Source: a virus
DNA: 35,866 nucleotides
IMG/VR virus record: IMGVR_UViG_3300030098_000917
Location: 1-35,866 of that record
Strand: one strand, 5' to 3'
This document shows, piece by piece, positions 2,751 to 32,672 of the stretch. Under the pieces are notes generated by a model. The model did not search any database. It was not told the origin of the DNA and was given only the letters and a program-made list of their open reading frames with translations. Every line of letters starts with the position of its first letter. The stretch's first letter is position 1. Both the position numbers and the translations under genes were made by a program.

Positions 2751-3053
2751 TTACTTGTTGCTAAGTACTTTCGGGCTAGTATTATTACTTGCGTTGCTGC
2801 CACCACTAGAAGAGTTGTTCCAGCCACCGCCACCGCCGCCACTTCCGTTGAACCAGTTGTTAAGTCCACCTGGGGGATCACCAATTGGCGAGGGGCCCTC
2901 GTTGGCACCAATGCGGCTACAGACCCACCGCCCTTTAATCTTCTTCGCTTCAAAGCCCTCTGGGCATCTGGGCCGTCTCTCAAGACCATGGTTCGTAACC
3001 TTGCGGATACGAAGATCGTTATTGGGGCTGGAGTTCTTACGCTTCTTCTTCAT
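2751..3053 (-). CDS. Small protein with a basic N-terminus, a Cys pair and a Gly/Asn/Ser-rich tail (100 aa)
   Basis: ATGA start/stop overlap with the upstream TerS-like ORF at 3050..3053. The sequence runs MKKKRK...CPEGFEAKKIKGRWVC...GSGGGGGGWNNSSSGGSN. It sits at the T7 18.5/18.7 position but has no TM segment or lipobox. Confidence 0.5.
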   Translation of the reverse strand: MKKKRKNSSPNNDLRIRKVTNHGLERRPRCPEGFEAKKIKGRWVCSRIGANEGPSPIGDPPGGLNNWFNGSGGGGGGWNNSSSGGSNASNNTSPKVLSNK

Positions 3054-3301
3054 CCGGCTTCCTCCACAGGGGCTTCGGGGTCAAATGGTAATACGCGAGC
3101 GAGGTTAATCAGCGGCTCGCTCTTCTGGGCACTGGCGTCAATGCCGTTGTCCTTGAGGAACTTGATGGCCGCAGCCAGTTCGGCAGCAGTTGCCTCACCG
3201 GATTGAATACGAGCAAGAAGCTCCTCGGCCAGGGACTTGTGAATGTTGGTCAGCAGGTCGTTGAGTTGATTATCCATCAGGCCCACTCCTTGAATATCCA
3301 T
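3050..3301 (-). CDS. Terminase small subunit candidate (T7 gp18-like)
   Basis: 83 aa helical protein just upstream of TerL. The ...AAELAAAIKFLKDNGID... segment resembles small terminases of T7/phiKMV-like phages as I remember them. Confidence 0.55.
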   Translation of the reverse strand: MDIQGVGLMDNQLNDLLTNIHKSLAEELLARIQSGEATAAELAAAIKFLKDNGIDASAQKSEPLINLARVLPFDPEAPVEEAG

Positions 3302-3495
3302 GAGATGATTGTGGCAGCGACAGACCCCACCACAGCTGCTCCGCCCAACAGGGCTGCACGGCCCTGCTCTAGTACCCGGACACGCTTGTCGATGCGGTCC
3401 ATCTCCTCAGCGTGGGAGCGTTGCATGTGGATCAAGGACTCCACCTTGCCCTCCAATCGGCCAAGGGCCAGGAGGATGTCTCTTGAGTCGTCCAT
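3277..3495 (-). CDS. Small coiled-coil protein with a C-terminal TM segment, a possible holin at the T7 17.5 position
   Basis: 72 aa. The hydrophobic stretch ALLGGAAVVGSVAATIISWIF lies at the C-terminus. The gene is located between the tail fibre genes and TerS, as T7 gene 17.5 is. Confidence 0.45.
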   Translation of the reverse strand: MDDSRDILLALGRLEGKVESLIHMQRSHAEEMDRIDKRVRVLEQGRAALLGGAAVVGSVAATIISWIFKEWA

Positions 3496-17716: not shown

Positions 17717-17968
17717 CTAATTCGCAGAAGCTTCTTGCGACTCAAGTGACCCGGCATACCAACCTTCAGGAAGGTCTACCGGGTTGCTGGAAAGCTCCCA
17801 CGTGGAGCCATTCCAGAAATAGACATGACCCCGTATTCCGGGGCCAAGCCTGATAAGTGCATCTGATTCAGGGACGAAGACTACTTTTGTGCCTCCGCAG
17901 CCGGTCACGCCAGCGGCGGCGAACATCAGAAGGAACGTCAGGAGCATCGTGTCCAGTCGTTGCTTCAT
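17717..17968 (-). CDS. Small lipoprotein (83 aa)
   Basis: It has a signal peptide with a lipobox, MLLTFLLMFAAAGVTGC, and a GGAG RBS. The mature part is about 60 aa. Confidence 0.65.
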   Translation of the reverse strand: MKQRLDTMLLTFLLMFAAAGVTGCGGTKVVFVPESDALIRLGPGIRGHVYFWNGSTWELSSNPVDLPEGWYAGSLESQEASAN

Positions 17969-18037
17969 TGGTCTTCTCCCACATGAATGGGATCAAAGCC
18001 TTGAACAAGGCCACAAGGGCCATGCTTATGGCTTCGA

Positions 18038-18232
18038 TCACGAAGTTGCCTTCTTCAGAGTGAGACGAGCACCGGTGTAGCCAAGGGCCACAAGTGCTGC
18101 CTCAACGAGGCCGACGACCTGAGCGGCAGTGCCTTCCAGGTTGAAGGTGCCAGAGGCCACGAGGGCTCCGAGCACAACAGCAATCAAGCTCATCCAAAAC
18201 TCAGTCGTCTTGTATCCAGGTTTGTTGTCCAC
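18038..18232 (-). CDS. Two-TM small membrane protein, holin-like (64 aa)
   Basis: MDNKPGYKTTEFW is followed by two hydrophobic helices, MSLIAVVLGALVASG and AAQVVGLVEAALVALGY, and a basic C-terminus KKATS. Confidence 0.55.
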   Translation of the reverse strand: MDNKPGYKTTEFWMSLIAVVLGALVASGTFNLEGTAAQVVGLVEAALVALGYTGARLTLKKATS

Positions 18233-24518: not shown

Positions 24519-24733
24519 ACCGTGTCCTCCAAAATCAATGGCGTCTGTTCCCCGCACCAAAGACATCTGACGTTGAAGTCGTAGAACTCAACGGCTTCGT
24601 CGTAGGACATGCCCTGGCCCTGTAGTACCTCCAGAATCTTACGATCTGAGTAGACAGCTAGCGTTGCCCGAGACCATTGGCTTCCAAAACCAAGCAAGGC
24701 GTCGTCGAGTCCGTCTAGTATGTAGGGTGTCAT
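24515..24733 (-). CDS. Hypothetical protein (72 aa) upstream of the DNA polymerase
   Basis: Minus-strand ORF with ATGA overlaps to the neighbouring genes at both ends. Confidence 0.5.
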   Translation of the reverse strand: MTPYILDGLDDALLGFGSQWSRATLAVYSDRKILEVLQGQGMSYDEAVEFYDFNVRCLWCGEQTPLILEDTV

Positions 24734-25641
24734 TGATTGCCTCTGTGGATAGATTCAGCCGAAAGAATAGCCTGCCCAATCAGTTGAGGTATCTGAGGGA
24801 CTACGGCGTTGCCGAGCTGCTTGAGTCGGTCCACCCGATTGGGAACCCCATGAGCCACTCGACCCACGTCGGGTTCAGAGCCCCACTCGTTTGGGATACC
24901 ACCATGGATAAGTTGAGCTGCTTCCCTTTGGATAGGCGGCGTTGAATAGCAGGCATCCCCAGATGGCCTCGGTCCCTCACGTCGCTGGCCTGCGGCGTCG
25001 GCCACATCTTGGCTGGCACTGCCCCCTGAGCCTCGAACGGATCTTTCCCGTTCAGCATTGCCTTGGCTTCCTCTCGACTCAGCTCCCCCGCTTCCACCTT
25101 CTCCCAATCCACATTCGGGCCGCAGTCCTTGTGATCCCTCGCACATGGGGTAGGCCACAATCCAGATCCGGTCGCGGCGGTGAGGAGCGCCAACGGCAGC
25201 AGCGGGTACACAGTGCCATTCAACGCAATACCCGATCGAGCAGAGATTTTGTAAGACCAAGGTAAGCCCTTTAGATCGAAGGGCTGATACGTTTTCAATA
25301 ATTGCCCACGACGGCCGTACATCTCGGACGAGTCGAAACATCTCCGCCCAGAGGCCGGAGCGCTCTCCGATGATCCCTGCTCCTTTACCTGCTCCGCTGA
25401 TGTCCTGGCAGGGGAATCCTCCCGTGATGACTGTTGGAACAATTCCATCTGCTTGGAGTCTTTCACCCGTCAGTTCCTTTATGTCGTCATAGATTGGGGT
25501 ATCGGGCCAATGCTTCCGCAGCACGAGCTGTGCCTTCTCATCCTTCTCGCACATGGCGACAGTCTCGAACCCGCCCGTGCGTTCTAGGCCCAGGCTGAAC
25601 CCCCCGATCCCAGCAAACAAATCAAGAACCTTATGCTTCAT
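24730..25641 (-). CDS. DNA (cytosine-5) methyltransferase with a frame-discordant central region
   Basis: Motif I is DLFAGIGG, motif IV is GGFPCQDIS, motif VI is IIENV, motif VIII is APHRRDRIWIVAY, and the C-terminal motif is RVDRLKQLGNAVVPQ. Between about 25150 and 24900 this frame is G/S/R/E low complexity, while the +1 frame carries WPTP and LNPxWVEWLMGFPxGWT motifs (see findings). Confidence 0.75.
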   Translation of the reverse strand: MKHKVLDLFAGIGGFSLGLERTGGFETVAMCEKDEKAQLVLRKHWPDTPIYDDIKELTGERLQADGIVPTVITGGFPCQDISGAGKGAGIIGERSGLWAEMFRLVRDVRPSWAIIENVSALRSKGLTLVLQNLCSIGYCVEWHCVPAAAVGAPHRRDRIWIVAYPMCEGSQGLRPECGLGEGGSGGAESRGSQGNAERERSVRGSGGSASQDVADAAGQRREGPRPSGDACYSTPPIQREAAQLIHGGIPNEWGSEPDVGRVAHGVPNRVDRLKQLGNAVVPQIPQLIGQAILSAESIHRGNQ

Positions 25642-25913
25642 GGATCTTCCGGCCTTTGTAGGCCCACATTCTCCAGCCAGTCCCGAACGAGGGGGTCGTC
25701 TGCCAATTCCTTCCGCAGCTTCTTAAGAGCCTGATAGGCTATGGCCTGTACTCTTTGTCGGCTGATCGGCGTCCCGGTCGTTAAAGCCAGATAGTCCATG
25801 ATCTCCGTCCAGGTCCAACGCTCTCTGGACGAGAATCCAGTAGGCATCAGTGCTGGCCTTATTCGCTCCTTGGGGTCCGCCATTCCAGATTCGGGCGAGG
25901 GTTTCGTAGTCAT
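25638..25913 (-). CDS. Small HTH DNA-binding protein, sigma-70 region-4-like
   Basis: RERWTWTEIMDYLALTTGTPISRQRVQAIAYQALKKLRKEL resembles a sigma region 4 HTH. It has an ATGA overlap with the methyltransferase start. The true start is uncertain (25913, 25883 or 25847). Confidence 0.55.
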   Translation of the reverse strand: MTTKPSPESGMADPKERIRPALMPTGFSSRERWTWTEIMDYLALTTGTPISRQRVQAIAYQALKKLRKELADDPLVRDWLENVGLQRPEDP

Positions 25914-26157
25914 CGTTGGGTGCCCATCTATCGAGGTATGCCCAGAAGATTCGCCGGGCGTAGGTCAGTTTCTTGCAGTCCTCATACGTCCCACCGATTC
26001 CCCCATCGTGATCAGTTGAATCCTTCCAGCAGGCCCATGTGATCTGCATGGGGCCTATCTCTCCCGCGTCCCCTACGGCGTTCGTGGGATCGGGGTGCCC
26101 CCCGGTCTCGACCTGAGTGATGGCGTCTGCCAACCTAGAAGGGAACATCATCCACAT
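25723..26157 (-). CDS. Lysozyme-like lytic transglycosylase (SLT domain), the likely endolysin
   Basis: Supporting segments are ITQVETGG (putative catalytic Glu), GDAGEIGPMQI and ARIWNGGPQG...YW. The conservative start is ATG 26157. The frame stays open upstream to ATG 26382, which would add a signal-anchor. Confidence 0.65.
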   Translation of the reverse strand: MWMMFPSRLADAITQVETGGHPDPTNAVGDAGEIGPMQITWACWKDSTDHDGGIGGTYEDCKKLTYARRIFWAYLDRWAPNDDYETLARIWNGGPQGANKASTDAYWILVQRALDLDGDHGLSGFNDRDADQPTKSTGHSLSGS

Positions 26158-27742
26158 CTTGTTCGTCCCATTCTGACAACCTTCCTGTGAGTGGATTGTA
26201 TTTGACGGAGCAGCAGAGGCCGGTGTCTCCTGTGTATCGGTTCTTGAGAACTCGGAGACTCGTTGTGTTCTTGAGGTCTGCGTCTTGCTGGTCCCTCTCC
26301 AGGCCAATGCAAATATCGCTGAGCTGAGCAATAGCCCCACTGCCACGCAGATGGGCCAAAGAGACTTGACCGCCTTCTTCATGTGATCGTCCTTCCGGTC
26401 GTTTGAGGTGACTGACAATGACGAGGGCGATCTGGAGTTCTTCCACCAGGCTGCGGAGCTTCGTCATGGTGTTGTCGATCAGTCTCCGCTCGTCCCCATC
26501 GCCGATCCCGGACACCACAATGCTGAGGTGATCCAAGAAGATGTGAGTGCAGCCCATCCCCCGAGCCATATACCGAACACGGCTCAGGAGATTCTCGGAA
26601 TCGAGAGAACCCCAATGGTCGTACAAGACACACCGACCGTTCCCGACGGTAGCCTCGAACGCCTGTCTCTTCTGTTCCTCTGTGATCCGCTGCTCGTTCC
26701 ACTTGTGTGGTGGGCATTGGAGATAGAGTCCCATCAGGGCACGGGCTGACTGCTTCACATTCTCTTCCAGGGCTACCACGCCAACCGTGAGTCCCTGATT
26801 CAGCAACCACAGTTGCCATTCTCTAATCACGCTGCTCTTGCCTTGGCCGGTGCCGGACGTCAGGGTGACGACTTCACCCTGCCGCATCCCATAGGTCTTG
26901 GCGTTCAGCCCAGCCCAAGGGTATTCAACCGACTCCACCTCGGTCTCCTCGATGATCTTGTCCCAGAGCTCCTCGCCTGGAACGACACCATCGGGGCGGT
27001 ACGGTCGAGCCTCCCACATCGCAGAGATGAGTTCCTTCGACCGGCCCGCCACCAGCATCTCGCTGGCATCCTTGAGGGGGAGGGAGGCGATCGCCGCCTT
27101 TCCAGGCGACAGTTGCATCGCACATTCGACCGCCGCCTTCTGTCCCGGCTCATCTTGGTCGAACATGAAGACAACCTGCTCGTAGGTCTCCAGCCACTCA
27201 AGTTGGCGTTGAACTGCTTTGGCAGCTCCTTGTGCCCCAGAAGGCACGGAGACCACAGGCCATCGGTTGCCCTGTGCCTGCGACACAGACATCGCATCCA
27301 GCTCCCCCTCAGTGATGACGATCCGCTTGCCCCCCTGGCCCCAGAGGCGTTTGCCCCAAAGGCCAAGGCGGCGGCCCTCGCCAAGGATGTTGAACTCCTT
27401 GGATCGGGTGCGGATCTTCTGGGCAACAAGGCCACCATCATCGTCGTGGTAGTTGGCGACCTGAACTGTCTGACCCTTCCATTGAGACAGTCCGTACCCA
27501 AACTTCCGACAGGTCTCTTCCGTGATCTGCCGCTTGCTCAAGTCCCGGTAGTCCATAGGCAGAACCCCCGAGGGAGAAGTCGTCGGAGCAGTGACCTCAC
27601 CCTCAGCGGATTCATAGTGCCCACAGCCAAAGCAGTAGGCGTGCCCATCATCGTACCGAGCCAGATTGTCCTTGCTGTTGCAGCTGGGGCAGGGCTCGTG
27701 TGCGATGAAGTTGCTGTCCTGATCAGAGTGAGTAAGAGGCAT
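26135..27742 (-). CDS. Bifunctional primase-helicase (T7 gp4-like)
   Basis: The zinc finger is CPSCNSKDN...CFGCGH, followed by a TOPRIM-like region. Walker A is SGTGQGKSS. DnaB-type C-terminal motifs are LRGSGAIAQLSD and VLKNRYTGDTG. The acidic tail ends DEQDVDDVPF. Confidence 0.92.
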   Translation of the reverse strand: MPLTHSDQDSNFIAHEPCPSCNSKDNLARYDDGHAYCFGCGHYESAEGEVTAPTTSPSGVLPMDYRDLSKRQITEETCRKFGYGLSQWKGQTVQVANYHDDDGGLVAQKIRTRSKEFNILGEGRRLGLWGKRLWGQGGKRIVITEGELDAMSVSQAQGNRWPVVSVPSGAQGAAKAVQRQLEWLETYEQVVFMFDQDEPGQKAAVECAMQLSPGKAAIASLPLKDASEMLVAGRSKELISAMWEARPYRPDGVVPGEELWDKIIEETEVESVEYPWAGLNAKTYGMRQGEVVTLTSGTGQGKSSVIREWQLWLLNQGLTVGVVALEENVKQSARALMGLYLQCPPHKWNEQRITEEQKRQAFEATVGNGRCVLYDHWGSLDSENLLSRVRYMARGMGCTHIFLDHLSIVVSGIGDGDERRLIDNTMTKLRSLVEELQIALVIVSHLKRPEGRSHEEGGQVSLAHLRGSGAIAQLSDICIGLERDQQDADLKNTTSLRVLKNRYTGDTGLCCSVKYNPLTGRLSEWDEQDVDDVPF

Positions 27743-27956
27743 ACCGCTTACCCGTCAGGTCAGTCTTCATTTCGGTTTCGATGTCGTGGCCCTGGTTCCT
27801 CAGTTCCTCAACACGGGCGGCAAGCCGGTAGATGCGGTATAAAGACATGGCCTCCAGCGCAGTGATGGAGCCCTTCGTCTCCAAGTGGCGAAGGATTAAC
27901 TGGGCCTGGGTCATCTTCTTGGGAGCCTTCCATAGCTCCATCTGTTTTGTTGTCAT
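27723..27956 (-). CDS. Small winged-helix/HTH protein (HTH_39-like)
   Basis: The start is trimmed to MTTKQMELW (ATG 27956), 7 nt after GAGGAG. The pattern is QAQLILRHLETKGSITALEAMSLYRIYRLAARVEELRNQGHDI...YASYSL. Confidence 0.6.
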   Translation of the reverse strand: MTTKQMELWKAPKKMTQAQLILRHLETKGSITALEAMSLYRIYRLAARVEELRNQGHDIETEMKTDLTGKRYASYSL

Positions 27957-28338
27957 CGTCGATCTCCTCGACAACCAAGTCGATAAGCCCCTCCTCTGCC
28001 GCAAAGTCCTTGAAGGCACAGACCTTTACGATCTGTTGGTCATCCTCCCAGATGTACCCAGTGCAGCAGTCGAGGAGCAGTTTCAGGTAGTTATCAATGT
28101 CGCCTCTAGGTGTGGGGAGCTTTGTTGTCTTCGGCTTCTTCACCGAAAACATCACCCACACCAACAGCCTTCCACTCAAGGGAGCCTCGGGGAGAAGTCC
28201 CTCCTCCCGCATACCACCAAGGAGAGCCAAGGCTTCCGAGCGGAAGGCCTGGTGCCGCTTCCCGTAGTAGGTGCCCCACTTGGAGACACGCGGGCGGGAA
28301 GCAGGGACCGGGTTGATGTTGAGGCGGTAGGTGAGCAT
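27808..28338 (-). CDS. RusA-like Holliday junction resolvase with an extended acidic tail
   Basis: Supporting segments are PVPASRPR...RGDIDNYLKLLLDCCTGYIWEDDQQIV...IDLVVEEI. There is no stop until 27808, so the last roughly 50 codons overlap the downstream HTH gene out of frame. Confidence 0.7.
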   Translation of the reverse strand: MLTYRLNINPVPASRPRVSKWGTYYGKRHQAFRSEALALLGGMREEGLLPEAPLSGRLLVWVMFSVKKPKTTKLPTPRGDIDNYLKLLLDCCTGYIWEDDQQIVKVCAFKDFAAEEGLIDLVVEEIDDDNKTDGAMEGSQEDDPGPVNPSPLGDEGLHHCAGGHVFIPHLPACRPC

Positions 28339-31637: not shown

Positions 31638-32672
31638 TTATGCCACAACGTCGAGCATGGGACCAGATGATCTGTTGGGCTCCAGCAAACCGATGGCTGA
31701 CACCAAGTTATGAGGAGCCAAGTGAGCGTAGCGGAGCGTGACTTCAATCGTCTTGTGCCCCGCCAGTTCCTTCACCGTCAGGATCGGGACACCTCGCTGC
31801 ACCAGGCGTGAGCAGAACGTGTGCCTCAGAGCATGCATCACCTCCTGCCCAGTGGCTGGCCAGTCCATGTGAAGACGGAGCCGGTCCCAGTAGTTCCTGA
31901 GATGGTGCTTCGTCGTCCACTCGAAAGGCCCCTTGGCCGAGGAGTCCATGGCACCCAACGCAGCTTGAGCCGCCTGGGTCAGGGGGACTCCCCTTGGGCT
32001 CTCGGACTTCGTGTCCGACAGGATCACCACGCCCCCTTGGATGTCACGCCACTCAAGACCACGGGTCTCACTGACCCTGAGCCCAGTGTCGGCCTGGAAC
32101 CTGACCCAGTGCCCCATGTTCGGGTGACCAAGGTGGTCGAAGTAGGCCACCATCTCCTTGAGTTCCTTGTCGGTAAACCAACGCAGACGGTTGACCCCCT
32201 CTCGCAGCCGCTGGACCTTGGGCTTCGAGTCGATCACCCCGATGTCCTTGGCCACCGTCAGGCACTTGGACAGCGAAGCGAGCTTCCGGTTGATCGTGGC
32301 ATTCGAGTTCCCGTGGTCCTTGAGGGCCAAGATCACTCGGTCAATGGCGAACAGGTCGATGTCACGCACCAGTGTCCCCATGCCGATAAGCCCGCCGACA
32401 ATCTCAGCGTTCCGCTTGAGGCCACTGCCAGACTTCGAGTCCGACCAGTACCGAGTAGACACGTACTCGATCATCTGTCCCAGGGTCTTGGGCCTCTCAT
32501 CGGAGCCACGCTCGGTGCCTCCCATGTCCGGCACCCGACCAGCCACTACGTCGGCCTTGGCCTGGGCCTCCCAGACCTCAGCATCCTCGTATGTCTTGAA
32601 CTGCTTACGCCACCGCTGACCCTTGTGGTTCACCGTGGCTTGGAAGCCCTTGTCCCTTGCGCTAATGGTCAT
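31638..32672 (-). CDS. int: Tyrosine recombinase / phage integrase
   Basis: 344 aa. The C-terminal catalytic pattern is ...TGLRVSE...HALRHTFCSRLVQRG...LAGHKTIEVTLRYAHL (R, H-x-x-R, H, Y). Confidence 0.88.
   Translation of the reverse strand: MTISARDKGFQATVNHKGQRWRKQFKTYEDAEVWEAQAKADVVAGRVPDMGGTERGSDERPKTLGQMIEYVSTRYWSDSKSGSGLKRNAEIVGGLIGMGTLVRDIDLFAIDRVILALKDHGNSNATINRKLASLSKCLTVAKDIGVIDSKPKVQRLREGVNRLRWFTDKELKEMVAYFDHLGHPNMGHWVRFQADTGLRVSETRGLEWRDIQGGVVILSDTKSESPRGVPLTQAAQAALGAMDSSAKGPFEWTTKHHLRNYWDRLRLHMDWPATGQEVMHALRHTFCSRLVQRGVPILTVKELAGHKTIEVTLRYAHLAPHNLVSAIGLLEPNRSSGPMLDVVA

Follow-up and report, generated by a model that had tools for sequence, protein, structure and literature searches.

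The stretch of viral DNA considered here, from a marine T7-like phage (IMG/VR virus record IMGVR_UViG_3300030098_000917, positions 1 to 35,866; henceforth the window, meaning all 35,866 nucleotides (nt), whose positions serve as coordinates throughout) has all its genes on the minus strand, among them a primase-helicase of the T7 gp4 type and, immediately downstream, a lysozyme. The lysozyme gene appears to begin well inside the helicase gene. Read in the +1 frame, the last 82 codons of the helicase supply a start codon preceded by a Shine-Dalgarno (SD)-like sequence, a basic N-terminus (MKK), a 21-residue hydrophobic helix and a disordered linker of about 50 residues, all of which precede the catalytic domain. 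We consider it likely that this long form with its anchor, encoded in DNA that is constrained in the helicase and lysozyme frames alike, is a real and selected product. As far as the sequences allow it to be judged, the long form is most likely a Sec-exported, membrane-anchored endolysin.

Two reading frames in the 3' end of the helicase gene

The lysozyme reading frame is free of stop codons over 25723..26418, and the protein that starts at the ATG at 26382..26380 opens with MKKAVKSLWPICVAVGLLLSSAIFALAWRG. Further in-frame ATGs lie at 26157, 26151 and 26148; the one at 26157 overlaps the helicase gene by 23 nt, and the extension upstream of it measures 225 nt. These figures, along with the GGAAGGA located 7 nt before ATG 26382, agree with those of the initial annotation, a reading of the letters alone that had proposed a signal-anchor extension overprinted on the C-terminal domain of the helicase. 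Its assertion that the helicase motifs underlying the extension are genuine is likewise upheld by the Pfam domains of the helicase (with DnaB_C spanning residues 277-508) and by the alignment of its C-terminal 129 residues with residues 415-543 of T7 gp4 (E ~1e-37). Judged by its motifs, which are common to T7 and the cultured Autographiviridae, the helicase is evidently the ancestral frame. Because the lysozyme is read in frame +1 of the helicase, the third position of a helicase codon is the second position of a lysozyme codon. The stretches TQTSR, VSEFSR and TDTQETPASAAPSNTIHSQEGCQNGTNK are found among residues 1-75 of the lysozyme, and the DNA for its linker also encodes the helicase sequence ERDQQ...VLKNRYTGDTG...DVDDVPF.

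Conservation of the overprint and its absence from other helicases

Scanning IMG/VR with the lysozyme gave many loci, among which, once duplicates had been removed, at least 26 group with the window; these 27 make up the clade considered here. A single architecture is common to all of them: the lysozyme lies downstream of the helicase, in its +1 frame, with 97-117 open codons before the VETGG motif. The protein begins with M[KR][KRM] (MDADTKK in L016, from a shifted start) and continues into an uncharged stretch of 15-27 residues, which spans 19-27 residues in all members except L009 and L017. Long forms are annotated as such in the relatives P0003, P0004 and P0010. The clade is far from near-clonal: the C-terminal identity of the helicases to that of the window is 52-87% across the 26 relatives, and fourfold-degenerate third positions upstream of the overlap have a mean pairwise identity of 0.31. 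Synonymous sites are thus near saturation, and the features that have been kept are not explained by shared ancestry.

Within the overlap, the +1 frame has no stop in any of the 27 loci, whereas the +2 frame of the same DNA has 2-12, and equally long +1 windows taken upstream in the clade have 2-6.7 stops on average. Of 26 clade members, 25 use CAT as the histidine codon that supplies the "AT" of the start, compared with 15 CAC versus 11 CAT at a histidine ten codons upstream. Any change at a helicase third position alters a lysozyme residue, and such sites vary less than those upstream: pairwise identity at fourfold sites rises to 0.45 in the overlap against the upstream 0.31, and third-position entropy at conserved fourfold codons falls to 1.40 bits from 1.75 upstream (p = 0.0015). 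The composition of these sites is also shifted, with T occupying 0.48 of helicase third positions over the helix versus 0.24 elsewhere, an excess present in all 27 loci (Wilcoxon p = 7e-9). With a rough, hand-made Jukes-Cantor correction, changes in the alternative frame proceed at ~0.5 of the neutral rate. This suggests selection acting on hydrophobic character and not on the exact sequence.

Helicases without the overlap provide the counterpart. The control set (n = 78) comprises L079, four cultured Autographiviridae and 73 helicase homologues from IMG/VR. L079 encodes the same lysozyme with an overlap of only 68 nt; there, the corresponding +1 frame has ACG in place of the ATG, five stops and a Kyte-Doolittle maximum of -0.39. 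In the four cultured phages, which include Ralstonia phage RpY2 with its near-identical helicase motif SHEEGGQISLSELRGSGAIAQLSD, the frame lacks the ATG and is broken by 1-5 stops, and the Kyte-Doolittle maximum ranges from -0.66 to 0.56. A helicase profile scan returned 76 distinct homologues with 52-63% identity, of which just three have an open +1 frame, all from contigs already known for the overlapping lysozyme. In the remaining 73, the frame contains 1-10 stops (median 5), the median Kyte-Doolittle maximum is 0.23, no lysozyme lies downstream, and the relevant histidine codon is CAT or CAC in 32 and 38 cases, respectively. The open frame thus separates the clade from the controls completely (27/27 versus 0/78, Fisher p = 1e-25), and CAT usage also differs between the two (p = 3e-6). 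In the homologue search and in the loci examined, the extension was confined to this clade, in which the lysozyme comes directly after the helicase.

The same conclusion was approached by resampling synonymous helicase codons 5000 times per genome according to its own codon usage. In the window, the frame stayed open with a probability of 0.033 and an ATG arose at the right place with a probability of 0.13, while a Kyte-Doolittle maximum of at least 2.24, the value of the actual segment over 19 residues, was reached in none of the 5000 runs. The joint probability of openness, ATG and hydrophobicity is <=0.0014 in each clade member, and in 20 of the 27 no run (0/5000) combined all three. As the window genome has 57% GC and 34% of its equally long upstream +1 windows are also open, openness alone is weak evidence; it is the hydrophobic segment and the conservation across genomes that carry the significance. 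The initial annotation had suggested that relatives be searched for an uninterrupted alternative frame with a retained hydrophobic segment, and for depressed synonymous variation at the helicase 3' end. Both are found in the clade, where the ATG is kept as well, and its view that both frames are constrained is in keeping with the controls, the resampling, the T enrichment and the lowered synonymous diversity.

Two other explanations of the open frame were considered and set aside. Chance openness stemming from GC content is ruled out by the 78 controls and the resampling. A helicase-lysozyme fusion through frameshifting would presumably have no need of a conserved ATG, an SD or the compensatory ATG of L016 described below.

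How the overprint was built

When the overlap is mapped on the T7 gp4 alignment, the ATG corresponds to T7 His475, the helix lies over the LRGSGAIAQLSD region of the helicase, and the linker over ERDQQ, VLKNRYTGDTG and an acidic tail that ends in Phe. The Arg of VLKNRYTGDTG aligns with T7 Arg522, which we take to be the arginine finger. The first 82 lysozyme residues would accordingly have arisen by overprinting on the RecA-like core and the acidic tail of a replicative helicase.

Much of what the extension required may already have been on hand. The helicase fixes positions 1 and 3 of the lysozyme codons and leaves position 2 free wherever its own codon is degenerate. The Pro-Glu-Gly codons (CCG GAA GGA) yield the SD, which is therefore largely imposed by the PEG motif of the helicase; HEEG reads M-K/R-K/R in frame +1 once its His is CAT; and LERDQQD reads W-R/K/S-G-T-S-K-T. 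At the free positions, T gives Leu, Val, Ile or Phe, and C gives Ser, Thr, Ala or Pro. Thus, the helicase sequence could have provided most of the raw material, namely the SD, the MKK and the hydrophobic residues, without cost.

The lysozyme domain and its architecture

An AlphaFold model built with a 23-sequence alignment divides the long form into a helix (residues 8-29), a disordered region (~30-80, with pLDDT, the model's predicted local confidence, <50 over residues 33-73), a globular domain (82-196, pLDDT ~95) and a floppy tail (197-219, pLDDT ~50), the length of which differs between homologues. By sequence profile and predicted fold, the globular part is an invertebrate-type (i-type) lysozyme of the destabilase family (PF05497). 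The family profile matches leech destabilase (8bbu, E = 5e-19) as well as the bivalve i-type lysozymes 3ab6, 4pj2 and 2dqa. The best Foldseek matches to the model are 8bbu, 8bbw, 2dqa, 4pj2 and 3ab6 (target-normalised TM-score, a measure of structural similarity, 0.74-0.80; 25-30% identity), with the lytic transglycosylases MltE and Slt70 ranking well below the i-type structures. The initial annotation had called the domain SLT-type; both enzyme groups belong to one broad lysozyme-like fold, but the nearest family by sequence and by fold is the i-type lysozyme/destabilase, and the label has been changed. Precomputed PF05497 matches exist for most of the lysozyme homologues. The window protein alone has a sub-threshold transglycosylase match among the PHROGs (E = 0.0095) and, as discussed below, a sub-threshold Pfam score, so that profile and fold were needed to identify the family.

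Within the VETGG motif, Glu92 is invariant, and Asp105, in a GD motif, is at least 90% conserved among homologues; in a hidden Markov model (HMM) alignment they face the E and D of 8bbu. As in i-type lysozymes, the two are likely to be the catalytic pair. The phage domain therefore resembles the animal enzymes both in fold and in the placement of the Glu/Asp pair. However, many of the cysteines of 8bbu (CLRCICKVEGC, sCGPYQI) face non-Cys residues in the phage family, so that the disulfide-rich scaffold of the animal enzymes is not seen in the phage proteins in this alignment, and the latter carry prokaryotic export signals, unlike animal i-type lysozymes. The phage proteins thus appear as a divergent bacterial/viral branch of the i-type family.

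Homologues of the domain also occur in unrelated phage contigs (L081 at 2971..3354, L027, L029, L045 and others), with 555 tblastn relatives in IMG/VR. In these, a short hydrophobic signal at the N-terminus immediately precedes the domain, and no helicase gene is close by, which points to a widespread and little-described family of exported phage lysozymes.

Start choice

At the conserved ATG, the energy of the duplex between SD and anti-SD amounts to -5.7 kcal/mol for the window; among the relatives that keep this ATG it ranges from -5.4 to -12 kcal/mol. L016 has lost it (CAC) and has a new ATG four codons upstream with an SD of -9.1 kcal/mol, a compensation that would be pointless without translation of the extension; like the conserved ATG and SD, it supports such translation indirectly. 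L010, L015 and L018 contain no ATG in the stretch that runs from the conserved start region (or from the hydrophobic segment) to the catalytic domain.

It is possible, though on balance doubtful, that the anchored long form is made alongside a cytosolic short form of 144 residues from ATG 26157, 26151 or 26148, the two having distinct roles, as the initial annotation had suggested; such a dual start would be compatible with an anchored endolysin. An ATG, GTG or TTG is found 12-16 codons before VETGG in 24 of the 27 clade members, L011, L013 and L036 have a strong internal SD (-8.8 to -9.5 kcal/mol), and gene finders choose the internal start. In the window, the internal ATGs arise from GAT-G in the D-V-D-D-V of the helicase tail, and the codon giving the internal "AT" is GAT or TAT in all eight members of the window subclade, against a GAT usage of ~0.5 elsewhere. 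Against this, L010 and L018 lack a start codon at the internal position, these two and L015 are without any ATG in the stretch from the start region or hydrophobic segment to the catalytic domain, and the internal SD of the window is weaker than the upstream one (-3.9 versus -5.7 kcal/mol). Moreover, Met, Val or Leu might be retained at this site merely as hydrophobic residues opening the first helix of the domain.

Probable export, topology and role in lysis

More distant homologues, whose genes are free of any overlap with a helicase, have N-terminal signal peptides or transmembrane segments of their own directly before the domain, which indicates that the family normally acts outside the cytoplasm. 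The T7-type gp3.5 amidase, encoded upstream of the helicase in cultured relatives, is absent from the window, and Pfam and PHROG scans of the window's larger proteins found no second muralytic domain. From the exported nature of the family and these two absences, we infer that the long form is the endolysin. The lysozyme would be translated from ATG 26382, within the primase-helicase gene and in its +1 frame; its helix would act as an N-in/C-out signal anchor, the enzyme being exported via Sec. The catalytic domain would then reside in the periplasm on a flexible tether and serve as the phage endolysin. Collapse of the membrane potential by a small holin would then allow breakdown of the wall to be finished, or set the enzyme free. 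Translation from this ATG, topology, export, endolysin role and trigger are all inferred steps of the scheme.

Several observations weigh against this picture. The charges flanking the helix are balanced: in the window, the net charge is +3 ahead of the helix and +4 over the next 15 residues behind it, and the corresponding means for the clade are +2.3 and +2.15; several of the downstream Arg and Lys residues are there because helicase codons force them. The helix does not adjoin the catalytic domain, and the long flexible linker that separates them fits poorly with the logic of signal-arrest-release (SAR) endolysins, in which the tether keeps the enzyme inactive. Taken alone, the window protein scores 14.7 bits against the Pfam Destabilase model, under the 26.2-bit cut-off (E = 0.036). 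The 64-residue protein put forward as the holin partner matches PHROG holin families weakly (E ~0.007). Finally, public gene calls favour the short product: the 144-residue P0001 is the only form of the window lysozyme in a large protein collection, and the exact short protein is annotated with this length on marine (Tara Oceans) contigs. The positive-inside rule was also tried as a means of fixing the topology and, with flanks so balanced, was uninformative.

Among the alternatives that bear on the helix itself, a cleavable Sec signal peptide, which would leave the lysozyme and its linker soluble in the periplasm, is unlikely. An Ala-Leu-Ala right before Trp28 in the window fits the -3/-1 rule, and distant homologues have classical short signal peptides with AxA-like ends; yet the uncharged stretch, at 19-27 residues in most members, is long for the core of a signal peptide, and the -3/-1 residues vary across the clade (VLD in L001, VLP in L008, ASD in L009). 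An inverted, N-out/C-in arrangement is very unlikely. It would keep the lysozyme on the cytoplasmic face of the membrane and still require a hole-forming holin, and it could appeal to the balanced flanks, of which the C-terminal one is slightly more positive in the window (+4 versus +3). However, positive charge is denser on the N-terminal side (three in six residues, plus the free amino group), the non-overlapping homologues carry N-terminal signal peptides that destine them for export, and no endolysin is known to have an inverted topology. Scarcely credible is the idea that the open hydrophobic frame has no function, being a by-product of helicase conservation and GC content with only the short form made: the helicase does dictate the MKK, the WRGTSKT and the SD, and 34% of the upstream +1 windows of equal length are open in any case, but the 78 non-overlapping helicases, some near-identical in motif, all have stops and no hydrophobic run, and the near-zero joint resampling probabilities, the third-position T, the reduced synonymous diversity, the compensatory start of L016 and the divergence of the clade all speak against it.

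A membrane-anchored, Sec-exported endolysin thus remains our preferred reading of the long form. A bolder version of it, which we regard as rather unlikely, is that an anchor born from the helicase core is the sole export route of an unrecognised class of i-type endolysins, with the start lying inside the translated helicase frame, perhaps with a cytosolic form in addition, and with lysis run as a clock coupled to replication. If this were true, the amount and timing of the exported lysozyme in marine T7-like phages would be tied to translation of the helicase.

Candidate holin cassette

Three small genes between the scaffold and capsid genes (17717..18232; Table 1) form a cassette that is weakly supported as a candidate holin/spanin set; the same gene order is found in L093. 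Counterparts of the 64-residue protein of this cassette occur in 25 IMG/VR contigs at 50-91% identity, a degree of conservation that is unusually high for a holin; in four of these contigs the overprinted lysozyme is encoded as well. A separate 72-residue protein with a C-terminal hydrophobic segment is encoded at 3277..3495 (-), between the tail-fibre and small-terminase genes. Its position is that of the T7 gene 17.5 holin, and it matches only PHROGs of unknown function.

Feature coordinates and neighbouring genes

Table 1. Features of the helicase-lysozyme overlap and of the candidate holin cassette in the window
Feature	Coordinates	Strand	Basis or remark
Primase-helicase gene, T7 gp4 type, 535 residues	26135..27742	-	Pfam Helic-prim_T7_N, Toprim_2, DnaB_C
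Lysozyme long form, 219 residues + stop: signal anchor (putative), linker, i-type lysozyme domain, tail	25723..26382	-	Open reading frame (ORF) list
Two-frame overlap, 248 nt	26135..26382	-	Helicase His454-Phe535 + stop; lysozyme residues 1-82
Shine-Dalgarno-like GGAAGGA	26390..26396	-	7 nt 5' of ATG 26382
Long-form start codon ATG (predicted)	26380..26382	-	"AT" from helicase His454 CAT, "G" from next Glu codon
Hydrophobic, predicted transmembrane segment LWPICVAVGLLLSSAIFALAW, residues 8-28, after MKKAVKS	26299..26361	-	Hydrophobicity, AlphaFold helix
Hydrophilic Thr/Ser/Gln/Arg-rich linker, residues 29-81	26140..26298	-	Predicted disordered
Internal in-frame ATGs, M76, M78, M79 (MWMM)	26146..26157	-	Possible start of 144-residue short form
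Catalytic domain, residues 82-196	25795..26139	-	Invertebrate-type lysozyme/destabilase fold
Likely catalytic residue Glu92	26107..26109	-	Conservation
Likely catalytic residue Asp105	26068..26070	-	Conservation
Low-confidence C-terminal tail, residues 197-219, + stop	25723..25794	-	Overlaps ORF 25638..25913
64-residue protein, two hydrophobic segments, holin/pinholin candidate	18038..18232	-	Hydrophobicity scan
57-residue protein, N-terminal transmembrane segment	17868..18041	-	Hydrophobicity scan
83-residue lipobox protein (VTGC)	17717..17968	-	Overlaps 57-residue gene

Overlapping frames recur in the genes around the lysozyme. A 91-residue ORF at 25638..25913 (-) overlaps the lysozyme C-terminal tail by up to 190 nt, so that, with the helicase on its N-terminus, the lysozyme gene is overlapped at both ends. 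L001-L003 share the C-terminal part of this ORF (WTWTEIMDYL...ISRQRVQAIAYQALKKLRKEL), which has the appearance of a helix-turn-helix; no match to the ORF was found in Pfam or PHROG. Farther downstream, a C5 DNA methyltransferase gene (24730..25641, -) has a PF00145 match over residues 4-164 only, which correspond to the first half of the model. A 221-residue ORF in another frame (24801..25466, -) lies inside it. The middle and C-terminal part of that ORF (LWPTPCARD..., MWPTPQASD..., LNPTWVEWLMGFPIGWTD) are conserved in L003, whereas the middle of the annotated frame is not. A WLMGFPxGWT motif is reminiscent of methyltransferase motif IX, and motif X (LGNAVVPQ) closes the annotated frame. The region may thus hold a split or frameshifted methyltransferase, or possibly a second overprinted gene; a hybrid built by hand from frames A-B-A did not improve the Pfam match.

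On the other side of the helicase, a RusA-type resolvase (27808..28338, -; PHROG match, with PF05866 on the identical gene in L084/L085) replaces T7 endonuclease I. A 98-residue winged-helix protein (HTH_39; 27723..28019, -) is encoded in another frame and overlaps the 3' end of the resolvase gene by ~210 nt, which makes for another long overlap within the helicase gene block. A tyrosine integrase (31638..32672, -; Pfam Phage_integrase, E = 1e-19) adjoins the RNA polymerase gene, an arrangement also known from certain marine T7-like phages, and the phage of the window may be able to integrate.

Relationship to known systems

A functional parallel may be found in the SAR endolysins, such as P1 Lyz, R21 of phage 21 and phiKMV gp45, to whose domains the initial annotation had likened the helix. 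In these phages of Gram-negative hosts, an uncleaved N-terminal hydrophobic segment is carried by a muralytic enzyme, as it probably is in the window. The segment of the window is marginally hydrophobic, with a summed Hessa-type free energy of ~+0.26, similar to that of the P1 and R21 sequences, and a small protein with two hydrophobic segments, a candidate pinholin-type partner, is encoded elsewhere in the window genome. However, the fraction of small residues (Gly, Ala, Ser, Thr, Cys) in the window segment is 0.37, against ~0.6 in SAR domains. The helices of close relatives are strongly hydrophobic (down to -5, within a clade range of -5.1 to +6.4), unlike SAR domains. In SAR endolysins the helix adjoins the catalytic domain and regulates it, while here the linker intervenes.

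With T7, the system shares a primase-helicase gene that carries extra coding information: gene 4 of T7 also yields 4B in frame and 4.1 and 4.2 out of frame, and its lysozyme, gp3.5, is encoded in the same block of DNA-metabolism genes. That lysozyme is a cytoplasmic amidase encoded upstream of gene 4, whereas the lysozyme of the window belongs to a different enzyme family and lies downstream, reaching back into the helicase gene. When the long form was compared by tblastn with 50,697 phage records, no homologue came up in cultured phages, and blastn against phage records matched only the N-terminal part of the helicase, in Ralstonia, Roseobacter and other phages. In the literature on SAR endolysins, overprinting and destabilase/i-type lysozymes, we found neither a lysozyme anchor overprinted on a helicase nor an i-type lysozyme characterised as a phage endolysin; in PhaLP 2.0, "destabilase" is just a miscellaneous domain among predicted lysins (PMC13237592).

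In terms of genetic mechanism, an instructive precedent is the lysis gene E of phiX174, overprinted on the scaffolding gene D. There, third positions rich in T in the older frame serve as second codon positions in the younger one and yield a Leu-rich hydrophobic sequence (PMC8227390). In both cases, a membrane-spanning, lysis-related segment occupies the +1 frame of an older gene, and the same transfer of T from third to second positions is seen. The two differ in that E is a complete, stand-alone inhibitor of wall synthesis, while only an N-terminal targeting module and linker are overprinted here, and in that the older frame here belongs to a double-stranded DNA phage and encodes the conserved catalytic core of a replicative helicase. 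The single-gene lysis (sgl) genes of single-stranded RNA phages provide a second precedent: they arise de novo, encode a transmembrane segment and have an SD in front of them, they usually use frame +1 of the replication enzyme gene rep and escape annotation, and they tend to occupy poorly conserved parts of rep and to turn over quickly (PMC7693330). In contrast, the lysozyme extension sits on highly conserved helicase motifs and persists across helicases that are just 52% identical, and it is an added domain, whereas an sgl is a whole gene.

These comparisons suggest several wider implications. Overprinting would here have added a targeting domain to an existing enzyme instead of creating a whole new gene, and would have done so on highly conserved motifs, the kind of sequence considered least favourable to the evolution of two-frame coding. 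The readable pre-adaptations in the helicase (PEG to SD, HEEG to MKK, third-position T to Leu, Val and Ile) make the locus a tractable model for the origin of membrane segments. Since gene finders shorten the lysozyme in the window phage and in many relatives, the enzyme looks cytosolic, and the lysis strategy of a widespread group of marine T7-like phages would be misread; "synonymous" recoding of the helicase 3' end would, by the same token, destroy the anchor. The placing of i-type lysozymes among phage endolysins also bears on lysin discovery. Overprinting, transmembrane segments derived from T-rich third positions and signal-anchored endolysins are each known from other systems; what is new is their combination, its location on a conserved enzymatic core, and its persistence.

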